DNA of 64,000 nucleotides from a phage: sequence record PZ049694.1, one strand, 5' to 3'. The first letter of the stretch is position 1. Every line of letters begins with the position of its first letter. Below, in pieces: positions 5,857 through 60,175 of the stretch. The translations under genes and the position numbers were made by a program. The notes under the pieces were generated by a model, which searched no databases, was not told the origin of the DNA, and saw only the letters and a program-made list of their open reading frames with translations.

Positions 5857-7299
5857 TTAAAATTTTAACTCATTGGCTAAGCTATCTAGGTCAGCCCGTG
5901 TTGTTTTGGCTTTACCTACGCGTTCCGTACGATTCACCTCTGCCTGACGCATCTGAGCACCTGCGTTTTCATTTACCGTGTTAGGTGTGTTCATTCCTTC
6001 TTGCTCAATCTCAATCCATTTCTGGTTGCCTTTACGTACACCCATTAGGAATTTATTCCATTTATTCTTATCACCATATCGTGATTTGATTTGTTTGATA
6101 AGTTGTTGTTCAGCTTGTGCAAGTTCTTCGGTTTCAATTACAGCCAACATGAAATCTGCCGTTGCCGGTAAACCTGCTGATTCTGCAATATCGCTCATGT
6201 TCATATCCGAAGCATCCCATGCTGCACGTCCTACTTGAGCTGCAGTCCATAGAACTGTTTCAGATTCTACTGCTAATGCACGAAGTTCTTCTGCGATAGC
6301 TTTAACTAATGTGTAGCTATTTTCAGTATAAACTCTGATACGACAAGACCCACAAATACCTAAGTAATCAACCATGATTACGGATGGCACAAAGTTCTTC
6401 TTAAGTTTTAACTCATTAAGCAATGCACGGAATGTATTAGCATTAGCTCCACCAGTAGGATACTGTTTAACTACTAAACGTCCTAATGTGGATTTTGAAC
6501 GCCATTTTTCCATCTTGGCTTTATATTCAGCATAAGATACGTTGCCATCATCGATATCATCGAGCGATACGTCAAGCATGTTTGCATCTATACGCTTAGC
6601 ACAAACTTCTTCAGCCATTTCCATGGAAATATAAAGAACATTATGACCTGTTTGAAGATAATCTGCAGCAAGTGAACAAAGGCCTAAAGATTTACCAACG
6701 TTAACACCGGCCATTAAAACATTCAGTGTACCGGTTTCAGCACCACCTTTAGTGATTTTATTCAAAATGTTTAATTTGAACGGGACCTTACGTGCTTTGT
6801 TCAGATAAGAAAGCCAGCGTGCTTCGTAGTCTTCCATCCAGTCATGTCCAACATAACTATCAAACGAAATTGAAAGTGCTTGACGCATAATATCAGGAAT
6901 AGCTCCTACGTCAGGCATTTTCTTGTTACGTTGTTCTGGAGGTAATTCAGCATTAGACTGAATCTCAATGATTTTGGATGTAGCATTATACATCGCTTTT
7001 TGCTGGACATATTTCTCAGTTTCTTTAACCAACCATTCATGGTCTTCAGGAGTATCAGCCAATTTTTCAATTAGGTCTGAAGTTCCTTTATATTCGGCTT
7101 CAGTTAAAGAACTGTTATCTAAAGCCACCTTTAATGCATTGATAGATGGCATTGCATTATATTCGTTAACGTGGCTCTTTATAATTTTAAAGACGTTTTT
7201 TGCCGGTCCACGCTCAAAATACTCAGAATCCATATAAGGCCAGACCTTAGAAAAATAAGCCTGGTCATATACGAGATGAGACAAAATAATTTCTACCAC
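5857..7299 (-). CDS. 41: replicative DNA helicase gp41 (DnaB-like)
   Basis: 480 aa; Walker A GVNVGKS; extensive match to remembered T4 gp41; GTG start. Confidence 0.9.
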   Translation of the reverse strand: MVEIILSHLVYDQAYFSKVWPYMDSEYFERGPAKNVFKIIKSHVNEYNAMPSINALKVALDNSSLTEAEYKGTSDLIEKLADTPEDHEWLVKETEKYVQQKAMYNATSKIIEIQSNAELPPEQRNKKMPDVGAIPDIMRQALSISFDSYVGHDWMEDYEARWLSYLNKARKVPFKLNILNKITKGGAETGTLNVLMAGVNVGKSLGLCSLAADYLQTGHNVLYISMEMAEEVCAKRIDANMLDVSLDDIDDGNVSYAEYKAKMEKWRSKSTLGRLVVKQYPTGGANANTFRALLNELKLKKNFVPSVIMVDYLGICGSCRIRVYTENSYTLVKAIAEELRALAVESETVLWTAAQVGRAAWDASDMNMSDIAESAGLPATADFMLAVIETEELAQAEQQLIKQIKSRYGDKNKWNKFLMGVRKGNQKWIEIEQEGMNTPNTVNENAGAQMRQAEVNRTERVGKAKTTRADLDSLANELKF

Positions 7300-11359: not shown

Positions 11360-12520
11360 TCATTCCGGGTACCTCAAAGCGTCATCAGAGTTAGTTATAT
11401 CAATAATAGATATAGAGTTTTCTGCTAACCCGTTTTTAGATAATTGACGTTTATAATATCTTTCACAATATGTACACGTCGTCCCGCAGATTTCATTAGC
11501 ACAATCGAAATCTGGATGTCTGAACCACCTTTTTTCTAAAAAGCCATCTAACAAAGAGGTTTCAATATTTACTGTATGTGAAAACTCTGTCTCATTTTCA
11601 AGAGTGAAAATGGTCTCTAAAGGCTTCCACAGTTCTAACAAATTACCTTCAAACTTTTCAGAAGCGTATGCTTCAAGAACTTTCAAAATGTAGTCTGTGC
11701 TACCTGTACGTCCTGAAACTTTGAATTGAGTGATACCAATATCATTATAAAGTTTCAAATCTTGAGGACGAACAAAACGAGTTCTCAACCAGTTAAATGG
11801 ATCTGTATCACGAGCTTTAATACAATGTTGCATTGGATATCCATTTAAAGATTTGGCATCATCTACTGTAACATCGGTGCTATGGAAAATATAGCAAGAG
11901 TCACGATAACTACAATGTGTTGTATACCCTTTACCAGCATTAGAACAGAACTCATTTACAAGAACTTCAAATATTATATTGTTCTTATTACAAAACTCTG
12001 CTGCACGCTTCAGGAAAGAAACTGAACGGTTTTTATGAATTCCGCAGCAGACCTTTTTGATATTATATTGGTCATGCAAGTATTTGATTTGAGTTACAGC
12101 ATCGACATGTAGAATTGTTGAAACTTCAATCTCAATGTCTTTATTGACTTCACGAACAATTTCCATAACAACAGGGTTAGCGATAGTAATACGCCATACG
12201 CCTATTGACCAAAGATACTGAACATAATCCTGAATAGCTTTCTTCTTCCACTCAACTAGTTCTCTTTTTGAACCAGGATTTATCGTGTTGAGTGTATAGT
12301 TAAAGCAAATACCTAATTCGTTACAACGTTTAACGTAATCTTCTAACATCTTTTTGTCAACGTCAGGAAGCCTAAAATCAGGTCTGGCTGCTACAAAAGC
12401 CATTTCTCTTGTAGAGCCGTATACTTCATTTATCAAGCTATTAGGATAAGTTTTATTGAGCTCTACGATTTTATCAAGAAGAGCTAAATCAAAATTCGTT
12501 CCGATTTTAAAAGTATTCAT
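11360..12520 (-). CDS. Cys-rich enzyme of unknown function (386 aa)
   Basis: 13 or more Cys; C-terminal CANEICGTTCTYCERYY contains a C-x3-C-x2-C pattern; possible Fe-S or metal site. Confidence 0.5.
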   Translation of the reverse strand: MNTFKIGTNFDLALLDKIVELNKTYPNSLINEVYGSTREMAFVAARPDFRLPDVDKKMLEDYVKRCNELGICFNYTLNTINPGSKRELVEWKKKAIQDYVQYLWSIGVWRITIANPVVMEIVREVNKDIEIEVSTILHVDAVTQIKYLHDQYNIKKVCCGIHKNRSVSFLKRAAEFCNKNNIIFEVLVNEFCSNAGKGYTTHCSYRDSCYIFHSTDVTVDDAKSLNGYPMQHCIKARDTDPFNWLRTRFVRPQDLKLYNDIGITQFKVSGRTGSTDYILKVLEAYASEKFEGNLLELWKPLETIFTLENETEFSHTVNIETSLLDGFLEKRWFRHPDFDCANEICGTTCTYCERYYKRQLSKNGLAENSISIIDITNSDDALRYPE

Positions 12521-12577
12521 TTTTTTACATCTCGCGTTAATTGATGCGATGGTTTTTTGCAGGTCTTACTTAAATTA

Positions 12578-12979
12578 TTATAGATTCGGTTTATATGATT
12601 TAAATGTTTCGAATTCGCCTTTATTCATAAGAGCTTTGAATTCGTCAGGACGCATAGCTTTGTCGTCGATAATCCAATCATATACTGGTTTATGTGTTAG
12701 CAAATTATGGTACTTCAAGCCAATGTTTGCCAAGTTCTGAATCAGACTTGGGAGAATGTCAATTGCTATACGACCAGGACCTACTGACTTCATACCGCGA
12801 GCAGTGTAAAGCGTTATTGTATGCCCTGCATCATACAGGGCATTAATGGCAGACACCATTTCGACGTCTGGTTTGAAGTTCACGTAATCACGATTGTTAT
12901 TCCACTCTGTTATACAATCATCGACATCAAAACAAAGATTAAGCATGTTTTCTACACGGTGCATTAGATTCGTTCCCAT
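12578..12979 (-). CDS. HAD-superfamily phosphatase (small, 133 aa)
   Basis: Motif I FDVDDCIT (DxDxT); overlaps the upstream gene by 16 nt. Confidence 0.65.
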   Translation of the reverse strand: MGTNLMHRVENMLNLCFDVDDCITEWNNNRDYVNFKPDVEMVSAINALYDAGHTITLYTARGMKSVGPGRIAIDILPSLIQNLANIGLKYHNLLTHKPVYDWIIDDKAMRPDEFKALMNKGEFETFKSYKPNL

Positions 12980-34185: not shown

Positions 34186-34449
34186 TCATTTGAAATACGC
34201 TCGCAGTTGGTCAAATCCACCAATATGACTTCCGTCAGGAGCAAACACTTGAGGCATAGTCAATCCGATTTGTGATTCACGTCCAAGCTTAACCAGAAGC
34301 TCAGCAATTTTCTCATCATCAAAAACACCTTTTTCCGGCATAACATTAATGAATTCGAATGGCTGTTTCTTAACGGTCAGCAATCGTTTCGCATTATCGC
34401 AATAAATGCATTTATGAATAGTAGAGTCATAACCATACACTTTAAACAT
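34186..34449 (-). CDS. nrdC: thioredoxin NrdC
   Basis: MFKVYGYDSTIHKCIYCDNAKRLLTVKKQPFEFINVMPEKGVFDDEKIAELL near-identical to remembered T4 NrdC; start moved to internal ATG. Confidence 0.9.
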   Translation of the reverse strand: MFKVYGYDSTIHKCIYCDNAKRLLTVKKQPFEFINVMPEKGVFDDEKIAELLVKLGRESQIGLTMPQVFAPDGSHIGGFDQLRAYFK

Positions 34450-34855
34450 TATTTTTCCTTTCATCGATTAAATATGCAATGCCAAATACAATACATGTAA
34501 TAAAACCTGTGATACAGATAGAAACCAACAACACTGTACCAAAGAACCAAATCAAGTTATCTTTAGTAGTTTGTTTGATATCCATCTCACGAATTTCTAT
34601 AGCTATCGTATCACCTTTATTCAGAAGCGTATAAAACGACGGTGATACATGCCTGTCAAAAACACGGCCTTGTTCATCTTTATAAACTGCAATAAATTCC
34701 AATTTAGAATATTTTCCTGTAGATTGGCCTGAGATTAATTCCACTACCTCCACAGGAATTACTTTAGTTTCCATGTAAGTATTCTGGCTGTTCCAAATGA
34801 ATGGAATGATGGCAAAAACTAAAGCTGCAATAAAGCAACGAAGGCTATATCTCAT
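34442..34855 (-). CDS. membrane protein (137 aa)
   Basis: N-terminal and C-terminal hydrophobic helices. Confidence 0.5.
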   Translation of the reverse strand: MRYSLRCFIAALVFAIIPFIWNSQNTYMETKVIPVEVVELISGQSTGKYSKLEFIAVYKDEQGRVFDRHVSPSFYTLLNKGDTIAIEIREMDIKQTTKDNLIWFFGTVLLVSICITGFITCIVFGIAYLIDERKNNV

Positions 34856-35160
34856 TATAATGTTCTCTCAAATTTGTGGAAGCATTTACGGCATTTCAAT
34901 TTCAAGTTATCAGTGGTCCAGTTAACCAGTTGGACTTGGATAGTTCCACATTCCGGACATGGATGTTTTGCTGCCGATTTGGCAGCATTTTCACGTCGTT
35001 CAACCATTTTCATTATTTCGTTCCATGCCGGAGGAACGAACTCTTCTTCACCGTGGATTTTATCTCGCTGAACAAATTCAATCTTTGAACTATCGTCAAT
35101 AAACTTAACCAAGCCATGATTAGTGCTCATATCAATATCCTCTAAAAGACGTAGTTTCAT
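34855..35160 (-). CDS. zinc-ribbon protein (101 aa)
   Basis: CPECG...CRKC four-cysteine ribbon at the C-terminus. Confidence 0.5.
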   Translation of the reverse strand: MKLRLLEDIDMSTNHGLVKFIDDSSKIEFVQRDKIHGEEEFVPPAWNEIMKMVERRENAAKSAAKHPCPECGTIQVQLVNWTTDNLKLKCRKCFHKFERTL

Positions 35161-36110
35161 TATAACACCTCAATGGCATTTCGTAAGCCATCCGCTTTCG
35201 CATTCAGAGCTTTTAACGATTTAGTTTGTTCTGCAATCTGGGCTTCGACTTCTTTCAGACGAGATTTGAGATATTCGCGTTCTTCTCTTAAGTTATCAAC
35301 TTTTTCTGCTTTAGGCTCTTTAATAGGCTTAGGCTTATACTCATTAGGGTTCTTCAACTTAATTTGAATGCGAGAACTGTATAACATTGAACCGTTATCT
35401 TCGGTTTCGCTGAACATTTCAACAACATCCATAGTCTGTAATATCATACGAAGTTTATAAGACAGCGAACTAACGGTTTTGTTGCGCTTATTAATTTCTT
35501 CGGCTTTCATGGTACCGAGATTACGTGAGTAGTAATAAGGAACCTGGATATCAATTGACAATGATGCGTTACCATTACCAGTTGGTTTGAATACTGCAGT
35601 AACCCAATCTTTAACATGAACTTTATTTGTACGACCGTCGCCGCCTGTGAATAATTTACGTGAATGTTTAAAAAGCATATTCACTTGGTTATTGAATTCA
35701 CAAGCAAATTTATCAGCAAATTTAGTTTCAGGAATGGTAGATAACCAATCAGCCAAATGAGTCTTTTTAACATCGTTAATAATAGTAAATTCAACTAAAT
35801 CAGTTTTAGATGTCACAGATTTAATAAAGCTCGGCTTCATAAAGTTTTTAATGTTATCGCGAGCTACAGTAGAAGATAATAAACGAGAACGTTTGAACCA
35901 TTGAAGCAGTGTCCCTAATGAATGAGAATACGCATTCTGAGTATCTTTACAGATATGATTTTCTTGGCCTGTGTATGTACCAAAATCGCGAAGAATACCA
36001 CTTACTACAACTCGGTGTGGAACATCAAATCCTAATGAACCAGAAGCACGTTGGGCATGAACGTTAGCGATAAGACCTGCAAAATAATCAACATAATGTG
36101 AACGTGTCAT
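35160..36110 (-). CDS. hypothetical protein (316 aa) with C-terminal coiled coil
   Basis: C-terminal heptad-rich segment REEREYLKSRLKEVEAQIAEQTKSLKALNAKADGLRNAIEVL. Confidence 0.55.
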   Translation of the reverse strand: MTRSHYVDYFAGLIANVHAQRASGSLGFDVPHRVVVSGILRDFGTYTGQENHICKDTQNAYSHSLGTLLQWFKRSRLLSSTVARDNIKNFMKPSFIKSVTSKTDLVEFTIINDVKKTHLADWLSTIPETKFADKFACEFNNQVNMLFKHSRKLFTGGDGRTNKVHVKDWVTAVFKPTGNGNASLSIDIQVPYYYSRNLGTMKAEEINKRNKTVSSLSYKLRMILQTMDVVEMFSETEDNGSMLYSSRIQIKLKNPNEYKPKPIKEPKAEKVDNLREEREYLKSRLKEVEAQIAEQTKSLKALNAKADGLRNAIEVL

Positions 36111-36138
36111 AATATTTTCCTCTCGTTAAGATAGAAAG

Positions 36139-36167
36139 ATTATACTCCAACCATCCTTGGTTGTAAA
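36139..36167 (-). promoter_or_regulatory. early-type sigma70 promoter cassette
   Basis: Minus strand -35 TTTACA, 17-bp spacer, -10 TATAAT; block ttatactccaaccatccttggttgta repeated at 37132. Confidence 0.55.
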
Positions 36168-36172
36168 CTGAT

Positions 36173-37105
36173 TTATGATTTTAATGCATTCATTGCGTTA
36201 AAAAGTTTAGAGTACTGCAACTGGAGCTTGGTAACTACTTGTTGAGCATCACGAAGCTTAGCTTGTGCTTTGTCAAGTTCAACAGACAGTTGGTCCACAG
36301 TGCCTTTGATTTGATTATAATAGTAATCTTCGGCAGGAAGAAGACCGTTAGAGATTTCCAGTTTAGTCGACGGTGTGCCGTTAAACATAACAGGTTGTGC
36401 TGAAGCTGCATTAATCTTACCGATAGTTGGGGCGACAATAATTGACGCTTCGAACGTTGCATTTTCCTTTTTAAGATTTTGATAGTATTCAGAGTCTTTG
36501 TGCCACCATGGCGCAGGAACCTTTTTACCAATAGATACACGAGCCTGGATAGCGATATGGCCCTTATTCTTGATAGGGTTGATAATATTAAGCTCACGAG
36601 AATAAATTGCTTTAATCTGGTGAATATTATCACCTAGCACTTCCAACGCTTGGTGGAATACACGAGCAACGTTATCATTCTTAGGTTTATACGTAAGAGT
36701 GAACTCGTTCTCACTGATAACCATGATTTCCAACTTATCGTAAGTATATTTCAAATGTTTCATGTTAATTGCTTGAGGACGAATACGAGAAGCAATGGCC
36801 ATCAGATTGTTAAGGTTATTCCGGAACTGCTTAGCGAAATATTGTCCTTCACCGCCAATACAAAAATTACGAAGTTTCTGTTTGGCTAATAAACGGCTGA
36901 ACTCACCATTTTTAATGAACTCTTTAACGGGTGTGTTAGTAACGCATTCAAATTGAGTAAACTTACGAGAATTAATCCCATAATACGAACAGATTTCCTC
37001 AATCTCTTCAGGAGTCTTTACAGGCATACGGATAGGATTAGGTCCTGGGGTATATGCGTTCGAGGTAAATTCTTTGATAAGTTCTCTACGTGTAATAGAA
37101 GCCAT
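36173..37105 (-). CDS. hypothetical protein (310 aa) with C-terminal coiled coil
   Basis: C-terminal coiled-coil segment LSVELDKAQAKLRDAQQVVTKLQLQYSKLFNAMNALKS. Confidence 0.55.
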   Translation of the reverse strand: MASITRRELIKEFTSNAYTPGPNPIRMPVKTPEEIEEICSYYGINSRKFTQFECVTNTPVKEFIKNGEFSRLLAKQKLRNFCIGGEGQYFAKQFRNNLNNLMAIASRIRPQAINMKHLKYTYDKLEIMVISENEFTLTYKPKNDNVARVFHQALEVLGDNIHQIKAIYSRELNIINPIKNKGHIAIQARVSIGKKVPAPWWHKDSEYYQNLKKENATFEASIIVAPTIGKINAASAQPVMFNGTPSTKLEISNGLLPAEDYYYNQIKGTVDQLSVELDKAQAKLRDAQQVVTKLQLQYSKLFNAMNALKS

Positions 37106-37131
37106 TTTATATTCCTCATGTTGAAAAATTT

Positions 37132-37160
37132 ATTATACTCCAACCATCCTTGGTTGTACA
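37132..37160 (-). promoter_or_regulatory. early-type sigma70 promoter cassette (repeat of 36139-36167)
   Basis: Identical block tattatactccaaccatccttggttgta; -10 TATAAT, -35 TGTACA. Confidence 0.5.
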
Positions 37161-38156
37161 TCATTCCTTAAGAAGTTTTACTACTTGAATAAGATTAGCT
37201 CGTTCTGTTTTATTTTTACCGTTTAAGCCTGCTAATCGTGAGATTTCATCATCAGTCTGTTGAATAGTTACATTAAGTTCGTTAATCAAAGCTTCAAAGT
37301 ATTTGATTTGCTCAGCATGTTTTGATTCAAATTTTTGAACCGGAATAACGTCTTGGTTTAGTTCATCAATAAGGTCTTTAAGAGCATCTTCTTGGTTGAT
37401 ATCATATTCAACTTCTTTTATTTCTTCAACGAGCTCGTCTTTATATCTAACGTCTTTTAGTCCTGGTGCTGGTCCTGAAATCTCTTCTTTAAGAGTACAA
37501 ACATATCCAATACGGTATCCAATACCGTCTCGCTTGATAACAACTTCGTCAATAAATCCACAATGTTTAAGACCGGAGCCGATTAGGTCAAAATATCCTT
37601 GACGTCGTCCTTCAAACGTTACACGAACTACTAAGACAGTTTTACCTGCAACCTTTTGAAGCTCACATTTATAAAAGTCTGTTGAACCTGAATAACGTGG
37701 ATGAGTTTTAAAGTTCATCTGACGATCTAGACCCATTTGTAAGCGTGCTGATACGGCCATAAAACGTGTTTGGTTCTCGTTAAGATGAGCAACAATCCAT
37801 TTCAAAGGCATTTTACACTGTTCACGACCGAACAAATCAGTACGTCCTAGATTACGCAGGATGTTGTTAGAGTTAATCATCGACAGAACGTTAAGTTTAT
37901 TCAGCGCGCTGAAGATTCCATCGGCCATTGATTTTCCGTAACCTTTACACGCTTTAATAAGCGCTCGCGGTAGATTAGTATAGATTTCAGACGGCATATG
38001 AAAATCAAATTTACTAGTCAGTAATTGATGAACTTGGATAGCAATTTGCTCATAATTAAGTGCTCTGCGATCATTATGGTCTTTAAACCACACTTTAATC
38101 TGTGAAGCACATAAACCGTTAATTTCATGTTTTACCGCATCAGATGTAATGCTCAT
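37161..38156 (-). CDS. hypothetical protein (331 aa) with C-terminal coiled coil
   Basis: C-terminal coiled coil; third member of a tandem set of similarly sized genes. Confidence 0.55.
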   Translation of the reverse strand: MSITSDAVKHEINGLCASQIKVWFKDHNDRRALNYEQIAIQVHQLLTSKFDFHMPSEIYTNLPRALIKACKGYGKSMADGIFSALNKLNVLSMINSNNILRNLGRTDLFGREQCKMPLKWIVAHLNENQTRFMAVSARLQMGLDRQMNFKTHPRYSGSTDFYKCELQKVAGKTVLVVRVTFEGRRQGYFDLIGSGLKHCGFIDEVVIKRDGIGYRIGYVCTLKEEISGPAPGLKDVRYKDELVEEIKEVEYDINQEDALKDLIDELNQDVIPVQKFESKHAEQIKYFEALINELNVTIQQTDDEISRLAGLNGKNKTERANLIQVVKLLKE

Positions 38157-38218
38157 AACTATTTCCTCAGATTGAATTGGAACTCAAAACCATTATAACC
38201 CGTCCTTGGGTAAAGCGT

Positions 38219-38746
38219 TTATGCGTGAACCGTCTTTAAACGTTCTTCAAATTTCCGAAGAGTACTAATACGTTCTGCTTTCTGTTTTGTATAGTTTGCA
38301 ATACGTTCTGAAGTGAGAGCGTATCGTTCGTTTACTGTTTCTTTCATGAAGTCAGGGATTTCACGAGAAGCTTTAATTTCATCAAACTTATCGAGTACTG
38401 CCTGGTCTTCAGCGATTAAATTTTCGTACATCTCGATATCTTTCTTGATAAACTCGATATCTTCCTGGGTTACTTTGGATAAACGAGATGCTTTATCCTT
38501 TTTGTACTGCTCGTTAGTTTCACGAGACCAGAATAATGTACGTTTTTTGTTAGTGTTTTTGTAGACTTCCACAATTCCAACTGAATCGATGATAGCAATC
38601 CAATTCCAGCGAGATTTGAAAATCTGACCTCCGTCCACGGTAATCTCGTTACCATAAGCAACGTCATTAAAGAACTTGCTTTGTGCTTCAGATTTAAATT
38701 TACCGTCGTTATAATTTACCAGGTTGAAAATATCTTTAGCGTTCAT
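38219..38746 (-). CDS. hypothetical protein (175 aa)
   Basis: Minus-strand ORF. Confidence 0.5.
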   Translation of the reverse strand: MNAKDIFNLVNYNDGKFKSEAQSKFFNDVAYGNEITVDGGQIFKSRWNWIAIIDSVGIVEVYKNTNKKRTLFWSRETNEQYKKDKASRLSKVTQEDIEFIKKDIEMYENLIAEDQAVLDKFDEIKASREIPDFMKETVNERYALTSERIANYTKQKAERISTLRKFEERLKTVHA

Positions 38747-40330: not shown

Positions 40331-40612
40331 TTACTTATCGCACTTAGCAACATAATTAGGCATATCACAGAATACGGAGCGAGTAACTACTCGGCCCTTT
40401 GACCATGCTTCAGTTGCTTGTCCGGCTGTGCTATTAATATAGCTTGATCTAATGTTCTCAATACCCTGAGAATGTGAGGCATTTACCGAACCATTAGAAG
40501 ACCCAGAAGACTGGTTACCGCCAGCTCCTGCACTACCGCTGGCTGCACCCGTGGTAGCACCAACAGAGAATGCCATCATTACTGCGAATAAACCAATTAC
40601 TAATTTTTTCAT
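40331..40612 (-). CDS. secreted Gly/Ser-rich protein (93 aa)
   Basis: Signal peptide MKKLVIGLFAVMMAFSVGA; Gly/Ser-rich middle; two C-terminal Cys; late promoter upstream. Confidence 0.55.
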   Translation of the reverse strand: MKKLVIGLFAVMMAFSVGATTGAASGSAGAGGNQSSGSSNGSVNASHSQGIENIRSSYINSTAGQATEAWSKGRVVTRSVFCDMPNYVAKCDK

Positions 40613-50122: not shown

Positions 50123-50152
50123 ATAGTATCAAAGTCCTTGGAGGAAGTAAAC
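50123..50152 (-). promoter_or_regulatory. early-type sigma70 promoter cassette upstream of denV
   Basis: Minus strand -35 GTTTAC, 18-bp spacer, -10 TACTAT. Confidence 0.45.
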
Positions 50153-58012: not shown

Positions 58013-58042
58013 ATAGTAACACCGTCCTTGGCGTTTGTACAT
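58013..58042 (-). promoter_or_regulatory. early-type sigma70 promoter cassette
   Basis: Minus strand -35 TGTACA, about 17-bp spacer, -10 TACTAT. Confidence 0.45.
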
Positions 58043-60020: not shown

Positions 60021-60097
<77 letters not shown>

Positions 60098-60100
60098 GAT

Positions 60101-60175
60101 TGGTGACCCTGGCTGGTTTCGATCCAGCTACCTATCAGTTATGAGCTGACAGCTCTCCCATTGAGCTACAGGGCC
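60101..60175 (-). tRNA. tRNA with CAU anticodon (Ile-lysidine type or Met)
   Basis: 75 nt cloverleaf: acceptor GGCCCTG/CAGGGTC, D-arm GCTC...GAGC, anticodon loop CTCATAA, T-arm GCTGG...CCAGC, encoded CCA. Confidence 0.8.

Follow-up and report, generated by a model that had tools for sequence, protein, structure and literature searches.

A tandem array of distant nrdC.3, nrdC.5, and nrdC.6 family genes behind promoter stem-loop cassettes in a Mosigvirus-like T-even phage

The T4 gene nrdC.5 counteracts the SIR2-type NADase Dsr1; when supplied on a plasmid, it restores infection of Dsr1-carrying cells by a T4 deletion mutant (Srikant et al. 2022, PMC9391042). Four genes of the same T-even region have published counter-defence roles, and nrdC.3, nrdC.4, and nrdC.6 are not among them. 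A second described system is the promoter-early stem-loop (PeSL) of T4-like phages, in which an early promoter carries a stem-loop between or over its boxes (Arbiol 2010, PMC2839356; Comeau 2014, PMC4122927); published PeSLs recombine into mini-circles (PMC2839356). DSAD1, a phage inhibitor of DSR2 (PMC10973363), is a functional analogue only: it acts by blocking a defence of the SIR2-type NADase kind, originates in another phage group, and has a published structural basis of DSR2 inhibition, and it is compared here by function, not sequence. In the present study, we analyzed the full 64,000-nt stretch of PZ049694.1 (the window), with a focus on three adjacent genes labelled wA (the 316-aa gene), wB (310 aa), and wC (331 aa). 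We consider it moderately probable that these genes form a tandem array of very distant nrdC.3, nrdC.5, and nrdC.6 paralogs in PeSL- or MotA-type cassettes, the products of which would be coiled-coil oligomers with variable immune-neutralising domains. The families of NrdC.3, NrdC.4, NrdC.5, and NrdC.6 are abbreviated F3, F4, F5, and F6, and the genes are as follows.

35160-36110, minus strand: wA, 316 aa, orthologue of T4 nrdC.3; family F3, PHROG 1435, PF26897
36173-37105, minus strand: wB, 310 aa, T4 nrdC.5 family (F5); Pfam DUF7235 (PF23882), PHROG 2351
37161-38156, minus strand: wC, 331 aa, divergent member of the T4 nrdC.6 family (F6); PHROG 2257, PF26899

These minus-strand open reading frames (ORFs) lie at exactly the coordinates at which a first-pass annotation of the letters had placed three consecutive genes of 310-330 aa. 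The region shares 94-98% identity with T-even phages of the Mosigvirus type, and on sequence grounds the source is a Mosigvirus-like T-even phage with wA, wB, and wC as the Mosigvirus versions of T4 nrdC.3, nrdC.5, and nrdC.6. Full-length identity between wA and T4 NrdC.3 is 55.7%, and wA also matches the whole profile of PHROG 1435 (E=2.3e-103, residues 1-316), a family that also includes T4 NrdC.4; all 33 of its close homologues carry PF26897. Regarding wB, DUF7235 was matched over residues 15-309 (E=4.6e-111; 371.6 bits against a gathering cut-off of 30; model positions 1-307 of 307) and PHROG 2351 at E=1.7e-90, while identity to T4 NrdC.5 is 24% over 305 residues and the T4-type NrdC.5 allele was not detected by tblastn at E<=1e-3. 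wC matches PHROG 2257 along its full length (E=8.5e-127, residues 1-331), is 29-33% identical to T4/T2 NrdC.6, and has homologues that carry PF26899; an exhaustive HMMER search with its profile returned only 6 clusters among 1.84 billion representatives. Searches of PDB sequences, NCBIfam, and Pfam found no informative domain except DUF7235.

In T-even phages, the stretch from nrdC to nrdC.11 is hyperplastic, and the array sits within it, flanked by nrdC, an nrdC.2 homologue, nrdC.8, nrdC.9, nrdC.10, and nrdC.11. T4 NrdC.3 and NrdC.6 are orthologous to wA and wC by sequence and position, and T4 NrdC.5 and wB have in common their Pfam and PHROG families, length class, C-terminal coiled coil with its terminal motif, and slot between the nrdC.6 and nrdC.4/.3 homologues, although they are only 24% identical. 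T4 has NrdC.4, of which the window holds no copy, and wC differs from the T2/T4-type NrdC.6 in an extra acidic insertion of 35-45 residues before the coiled coil. As a separate observation, the reference T4 NrdC.6 (275 aa; 12067-12894 in the collected T4 locus) departs from that of T2 past residue 259 through a frameshift by which the coiled coil is lost; the frameshift is absent from T2 and also from T4 'wild' (KJ477684), which encodes an intact 296-aa NrdC.6 that is unannotated in the record, and it represents either a laboratory-strain mutation or a sequence error.

The N-terminal domains of the three proteins had been described as differing from one another, and the divergence is indeed strong, with no BLASTP match among wA, wB, and wC. 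For profile comparisons, the same region was gathered from approximately 50 T4-like phages, using NrdC.11 (82-95% identical among T-even genera) as the anchor and with annotated records added, and the last 65 residues, which contain the coiled coil, were cut from every sequence. HMMER iteration on these N-domains merged the NrdC.3, NrdC.4, and T4-type NrdC.5 families and recruited single-copy proteins of Klebsiella phage Marfa, Serratia phage CHI14/CBH8, and others. All remaining array proteins, namely the other NrdC.5 types, the Pectobacterium PM2 protein, and NrdC.6, were placed by the merged model at ranks 45-65, above the first unrelated ORF among approximately 1250 ORFs, and a relaxed iteration converged on 81 proteins, every one of which occupies the same genomic slot. 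At database scale, bridges were provided by the single Kanagawavirus protein, which was matched by the PM2 protein (E=1e-13) and the Marfa protein (E=2e-7). The profile of the Kanagawavirus and PM2 proteins aligned with the merged NrdC.3/4/5 profile at 96.9% probability (E=1.8e-10, 167 columns), and pairwise hhalign linked the N-domains of F3 and F4 at 98%.

The most direct test of homology was a leave-one-family-out hhalign comparison restricted to the N-domain, with 181 control profiles. NrdC.3, NrdC.4, NrdC.5, and NrdC.6 were joined at 93-97% probability with scores of 53-81 over 93-199 columns, against scores of no more than 28 for controls. NrdC.3 was recovered at 97.4%; the profile built without NrdC.5 recovered NrdC.5 at 93.4% (172 columns) and NrdC.6 at 87.6% (142 columns), and that built without NrdC.6 recovered NrdC.6 at 93.1% with a score of 54.7, the best unrelated profile scoring 21.3. 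Two N-domain motifs, approximately FK.SR.LS...A...L.NF followed by F...F.N....L...ASRL, occur in the same order in all families. Since the N-domains remain linked after removal of the last 65 residues, divergence rather than domain swapping is indicated, and of the two options offered in the first-pass annotation, distant paralogs or swapped N-terminal domains, the former is favoured. The sequence comparisons make it very likely that wA and wB are distant paralogs and likely, at a slightly lower level, that wC is a distant paralog of both. Homology of the N-domains across an NrdC.3-6 superfamily is probable rather than proven; the profiles behind it are shallow, since these families occur in Tevenvirinae only.

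A survey of presence and absence in related phages, which had been suggested as a check, showed that the array is not uniformly conserved, with copy numbers of 4, 3, 3, and 1. Tequatrovirus carries NrdC.6-5-4-3, the window and other Mosigvirus phages carry NrdC.6-5-3, which is one cassette fewer than in T4, Dhakavirus and Gaprivervirus carry NrdC.6-5-4, and more distant Tevenvirinae (Kanagawavirus, PM2, Marfa, and CHI14-type phages) possess a single array gene. Phage ACG-C40 has a lone NrdC.6 and remnants: a natural deletion (6730-7138 of its collected locus) removed nrdC.3, nrdC.4, and most of nrdC.5, leaving a 71-aa N-terminal NrdC.5 fragment and an unannotated piece of the NrdC.3 coiled-coil coding region. 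Array alleles are 10-57% identical across relatives, whereas the flanking NrdC.8, NrdC.10, and NrdC.11 are 77-95% identical; in the comparison of the window with T4, identity is 56%, 24%, and 29% for the array proteins, 83% for NrdC.8, and 77.5% for NrdC.10. By tblastn, the alleles fall into discrete classes with no continuum. In phage moha (6975-7276 of its collected locus), a 66-aa predicted membrane ORF lies between the NrdC.6 and NrdC.5 homologues; after it come 62 nt that duplicate, at 97% identity, the 3' end of NrdC.5 together with the PeSL, evidently a footprint of cassette-level recombination; a similar small ORF occupies the same place in Dhakavirus and Gaprivervirus.

Close relatives give dN/dS values of 0.06-0.37, with dS varying several-fold from one gene to the next. 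Gene-wide positive selection was ruled out by these dN/dS values, which together with the uneven dS indicate purifying selection and a diversity that arises from the mosaic exchange of old alleles. The earlier description of the array as diversifying therefore stands with respect to copy number and alleles, which vary across relatives, but not with respect to ongoing positive selection.

Besides T4 NrdC.5, counter-defence activity has been reported for gp49.2, which inhibits OLD (PMC13096335), NrdC.1, which inhibits Septu, and Bas37_0203 of phage KarlGJung, which inhibits Druantia type III (2025 preprint, in which it is not named NrdC.8). Bas37_0203 is an NrdC.8 orthologue, 83% identical to the product of the following gene.

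38219-38746, minus strand: nrdC.8 orthologue, 175 aa, immediately upstream of the array

Bas37_0203 was considered as a member of the array and was rejected on the basis of this identification as an NrdC.8 orthologue adjoining it. No homologue of the anti-Septu NrdC.1 or the anti-OLD gp49.2 was found in the window phage (region 32600-34500 and 34442-34855); beside nrdC, where T4 has nrdC.1, the window encodes a 137-aa membrane protein (34442-34855, minus strand) that is 43% identical to T4 NrdC.7. By analogy with these genes, wA, wB, and wC most likely belong together as counter-defence genes that vary from phage to phage, and accessory regions of this kind are known in phages. We infer this anti-defence role from the 24%-identical T4 homologue of wB and from the neighbouring genes, which provide its experimental backing.

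The best-placed rival holds that the three proteins serve early accessory or host-takeover functions and are not directed against immunity, acting, for example, on host metabolism, transcription, or the envelope, and that their variability reflects adaptation to host physiology. Early promoters, a location among the nucleotide-metabolism genes nrdC, nrdD, nrdG, and tk, dN/dS values below 1, the lack of a known domain or of a match in the PDB or NCBIfam searches, and an anti-defence phenotype for one family member only, T4 NrdC.5, are all in keeping with this explanation. However, four genes of the same region (gp49.2, NrdC.1, NrdC.5, and NrdC.8) have published anti-defence activity, the presence/absence and allele turnover relative to conserved neighbours are typical of arms-race genes, and whole array members have been lost naturally in ACG-C40. 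We regard a non-immune role as unlikely, but as deserving serious weight next to the counter-defence array.

Regarding the upstream regions, the first-pass annotation had noted an identical block before two of the genes, and TTATACTCCAACCATCCTTGGTTGTA (26 nt) does occur in exactly two copies in the window (36140-36165 and 37133-37158), upstream of wA and wB. The stretch common to the two cassettes is actually 27 nt, and none of 100 shuffles matched the repeat, even when 3 mismatches were allowed. The upstream elements are as follows.

36139-36167, minus strand: wA PeSL-type early promoter, TTTACA-N17-TATAAT; spacer hairpin CAACCA-AGGA-TGGTTG at 36148-36163
37132-37160, minus strand: wB PeSL-type early promoter, TGTACA-N17-TATAAT; same hairpin at 37141-37156; directly after the wC stop
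38192-38217, minus strand: wC upstream element; CGCTTTA at 38211-38217, hairpin ACCC-AAGGAC-GGGT at 38198-38211, TATAAT at 38192-38197

On the coding strand, both blocks read T(T/G)TACA-N17-TATAAT and begin 0-5 nt past the upstream stop codon, such that TTATACTCCAACCATCCTTGGTTGTA covers the spacer plus the -10 box in each of two T-even early promoters. In a sigma-70-type scoring of 9.5 kb, the wA promoter ranked best (11/12) and the wB promoter scored 10/12. The hairpin has a 6-bp stem and an AGGA loop (-6.9 kcal/mol), and the two blocks are putative PeSLs that fit the published definition. In line with the PeSL/PmSL cassettes of T4-like phages, the order is upstream stop, -35 box, stem-loop between or over the boxes, -10 box, Shine-Dalgarno sequence, and ATG, the array promoters conform to the T4-type consensus TTTACW-N17-TAYWAT, and the cassettes border variable ORFs in a hyperplastic region. 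The array stem-loop differs in its conserved CCA-AGGA-TGG core, whereas published PeSLs have a G-run/C-run stem in RB49 and AGNA...TCNT in the PST/T4 pair (PMC2839356, PMC4122927).

Each gene had also been credited with its own promoter cassette. An upstream element is indeed present for all three, but it is of the early type in two only. The wC element, CGCTTTA-N13-TATAAT with its own hairpin, resembles the T4 MotA consensus quoted in PMC4122927 and is therefore read as a likely middle-mode (MotA-type) promoter with a stem-loop; CGCTTTA-N12/13-TATAAT is conserved upstream of nrdC.6 in the Dhakavirus and Gaprivervirus loci. In the nrdC.3/.4/.6 promoters of other T-even phages, the AGGA loop is kept and the stem is altered by compensatory substitutions, with variants such as AGCCA/TGGCT, CCACA/TGTGG, CATCCA/TGGATG, CTTCCA/TGGAGG, TTATACCA/TGGTATAA, and ACCC/GGGT; across genera, at least eight stem variants with compensatory changes surround the invariant AGGA loop. 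An Rfam scan found nothing within the array. Elsewhere in the window, the early promoters at 58013-58041 and 50123-50151 (both minus strand) also have CCAAGGAC in the spacer, the former with a 6-bp stem, AACGCC/GGTGTT, around the same loop, and the AGGA-loop hairpin is therefore not confined to the array.

The 27-nt repeat may alternatively be explained as two strong early promoters that are kept alike by selection for strength, with no recombination role and a functionless hairpin. The window has approximately 15 T4-type early promoters on the same (minus) strand, and no U-tract follows the hairpin, both of which speak for this explanation. On the other hand, selection for promoter strength alone is insufficient to account for the compensatory stem changes around an invariant loop; moreover, the moha duplicate of a gene end and cassette flanks an inserted ORF, and recombination of published PeSLs into mini-circles has precedent as described above. 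We therefore view a purely promoter-based origin of the repeat as unlikely and prefer the PeSL-type cassette.

The third element of the array is the C-terminal helix, which is encoded as follows.

35163-35309, minus strand: wA heptad-helix coding region, residues 268-316; ends ...GLRNAIEVL
36176-36328, minus strand: wB heptad-helix coding region, residues 260-310; ends ...KLFNAMNALKS
37164-37340, minus strand: wC helical-region coding, residues 273-331; four heptads, Gly-containing break, then ...RANLIQVVKLLKE

A C-terminal coiled coil had been proposed for each protein. The claim holds well for wA and wB, the observed 35-residue heptad scores of which were reached by none of 500 shuffles, but less well for wC, in which the signal is weaker and interrupted: four heptads (residues 281-308, a 28-residue window; score reached by 10 of 500 shuffles) are followed by a Gly-containing break and two more heptads. 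All three nevertheless keep heptad periodicity across four or more heptads where a helix is predicted. The last approximately 14 residues, (Q/E)R.KL..A(L/I)..LK, are the best-conserved part of the superfamily, and a simple version of this terminal pattern is found in 74 of 87 array proteins against 9 of 1227 other ORFs. The motif appears more specific than a generic coiled coil, which hints at a shared mode of assembly or a shared partner. Within one genome, the paralog coiled coils have only the motif positions in common and, thus, no recent conversion is indicated.

Structure models were generated with AlphaFold2 from 29 sequences for wA and 5 for wC. Even when queried with a mixed alignment of 19 sequences, the homologue search found no more than close F3 proteins and F6 proteins of the wC type; T4-type NrdC.4, NrdC.5, and NrdC.6, although present in the query alignment, were not returned and are evidently not exposed by that search, and deep alignments for structure prediction were consequently not obtained. 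Along the chain, both models run in a similar order: helices at the N-terminus and one long helix come first, then beta-beta-(beta)-alpha-beta-beta, a linker, and finally the C-terminal helix. This helix spans residues 275-315 in wA (pLDDT 70-80) and is broken within 256-330 in wC, with low-confidence helices at 273-294, 302-312, and 316-330. After its own family, the wC model found its BFVD matches in proteins of Kanagawavirus IME523 (E=6e-5) and PM2 (E=1e-4) and among ~300-aa proteins of Acinetobacter T4-like phages; one of the last, E5EYP0, was matched by the wA model too, both models being of low confidence. These neighbours are array-type proteins of other T4-like phages, with TM-scores of only 0.2-0.36 from low-pLDDT models. 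Foldseek against the PDB gave nothing at E<=1e-3, and weak matches to H-NOX, DesK, and designed proteins are uninterpretable with such a model. As a side observation, E5EYP0/E5EYP1, D9I642, and E5E4A2 are ~300-350-aa Acinetobacter T4-like phage proteins that are weak structural neighbours of both models, and two of them bear consecutive accession numbers; from the models, related arrays may exist well beyond the enterobacterial T-even group.

The weakest rival, that recombination or gene conversion among adjacent cassettes gave unrelated N-domains a common C-terminal coiled-coil module, is very improbable: it would accommodate the lack of BLASTP similarity among the three proteins, the several cross-family profile matches that are mostly C-terminal (such as F5-X24, and F3-F5 at full length), and the existence of recombination footprints that include a gene 3' end (moha), but it conflicts with the joining of the families far above background after the coiled coil was cut, the two N-domain motifs in common order, the similar order of predicted secondary structure in the wA and wC models, and the restriction of within-genome coiled-coil similarity to the motif positions.

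In the array as we propose it, each protein would consist of a fast-diverging N-terminal alpha/beta domain of approximately 250 residues, a linker, and a C-terminal coiled-coil helix of approximately 45 residues. wA and wB would each stand behind a PeSL with a strong T4-type early promoter and a spacer that forms the conserved AGGA-loop hairpin, and wC behind a MotA-type variant of the same cassette design; judging from these promoter types, all three would be made early or in the middle of infection by the host RNA polymerase. The coiled coil would oligomerise the protein, and the variable N-terminal domains would bind and neutralise host immune proteins; T4 NrdC.5 counteracts Dsr1, and the other paralogs would probably target other defences or variants. 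Repeated PeSLs would offer T4 recombination short homologies at which whole gene cassettes may be deleted, inserted, or swapped, and such recombination at the array, combined with the exchange of deeply divergent alleles, would generate the variation between phages. The moha duplicate and the one cassette fewer than in T4 are indirect evidence of recombination between copies.

Several results weigh against this reading. In pairwise hhalign comparisons, F6 did not rise above noise against F3, F4, or F5, and its link emerged only through bridging proteins and merged profiles, which are shallow and T-even-restricted. The wC heptad signal is weak, and the AlphaFold models are poor (pLDDT 53 for wA and 50 for wC), so that a common fold is only conjectural. 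The dN/dS values point to purifying and not positive selection. In ACG-C40, the only natural deletion looked at, the junction falls within coding sequence and not at PeSLs. Scanning the coding strand of the array for intrinsic terminators returned none, and the hairpins are without a U-tract, which makes a terminator role doubtful. A role as a RegB (GGAG) processing site was also considered for the hairpin-GGAG arrangement. Moreover, wB is only 24% identical to T4 NrdC.5 and, therefore, Dsr1 specificity is not transferable to wB; the searchable literature yielded no published phenotype for NrdC.3, NrdC.4, or NrdC.6 and no later work on the mechanism of NrdC.5. A more far-reaching version, in which the NrdC.3-6 superfamily grew from a single gene to 3-4 tandem copies in T-even coliphages and its members form mixed coiled-coil oligomers through the C-terminal motif, creating a multi-headed counter-defence complex in which each head would disarm a different immune protein, Dsr1 among them, is quite unlikely.

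Two further features of the window were recorded outside the array. A 93-aa ORF between nrdC.10 and nrdC.11 (40331-40612, minus strand) has a signal-peptide-like N-terminus and a Gly/Ser/Ala-rich stretch; its product may be secreted or a lipoprotein, and its slot is variable between phages. Two adjacent tRNA genes lie at 60024-60175 on the minus strand (Rfam RF00005, 71 and 59 bits).

Earlier work already covers the genes, their families in Pfam and PHROG, the concept of the PeSL, and the anti-Dsr1 phenotype, whereas no description of a single NrdC.3/.4/.5/.6 superfamily, its C-terminal motif, or its expansion from single copy to tandem array was found in the searchable literature. What is modestly new is the superfamily link together with the common C-terminal motif. 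If nrdC.3, nrdC.4, and nrdC.6 are in fact paralogs of the Dsr1-countering nrdC.5, with a common oligomerisation helix and terminal motif, they would become concrete anti-defence candidates. The array would also show clearly how promoter-hairpin cassettes together with the exchange of alleles, and not positive selection on point mutations, diversify phage accessory genes.

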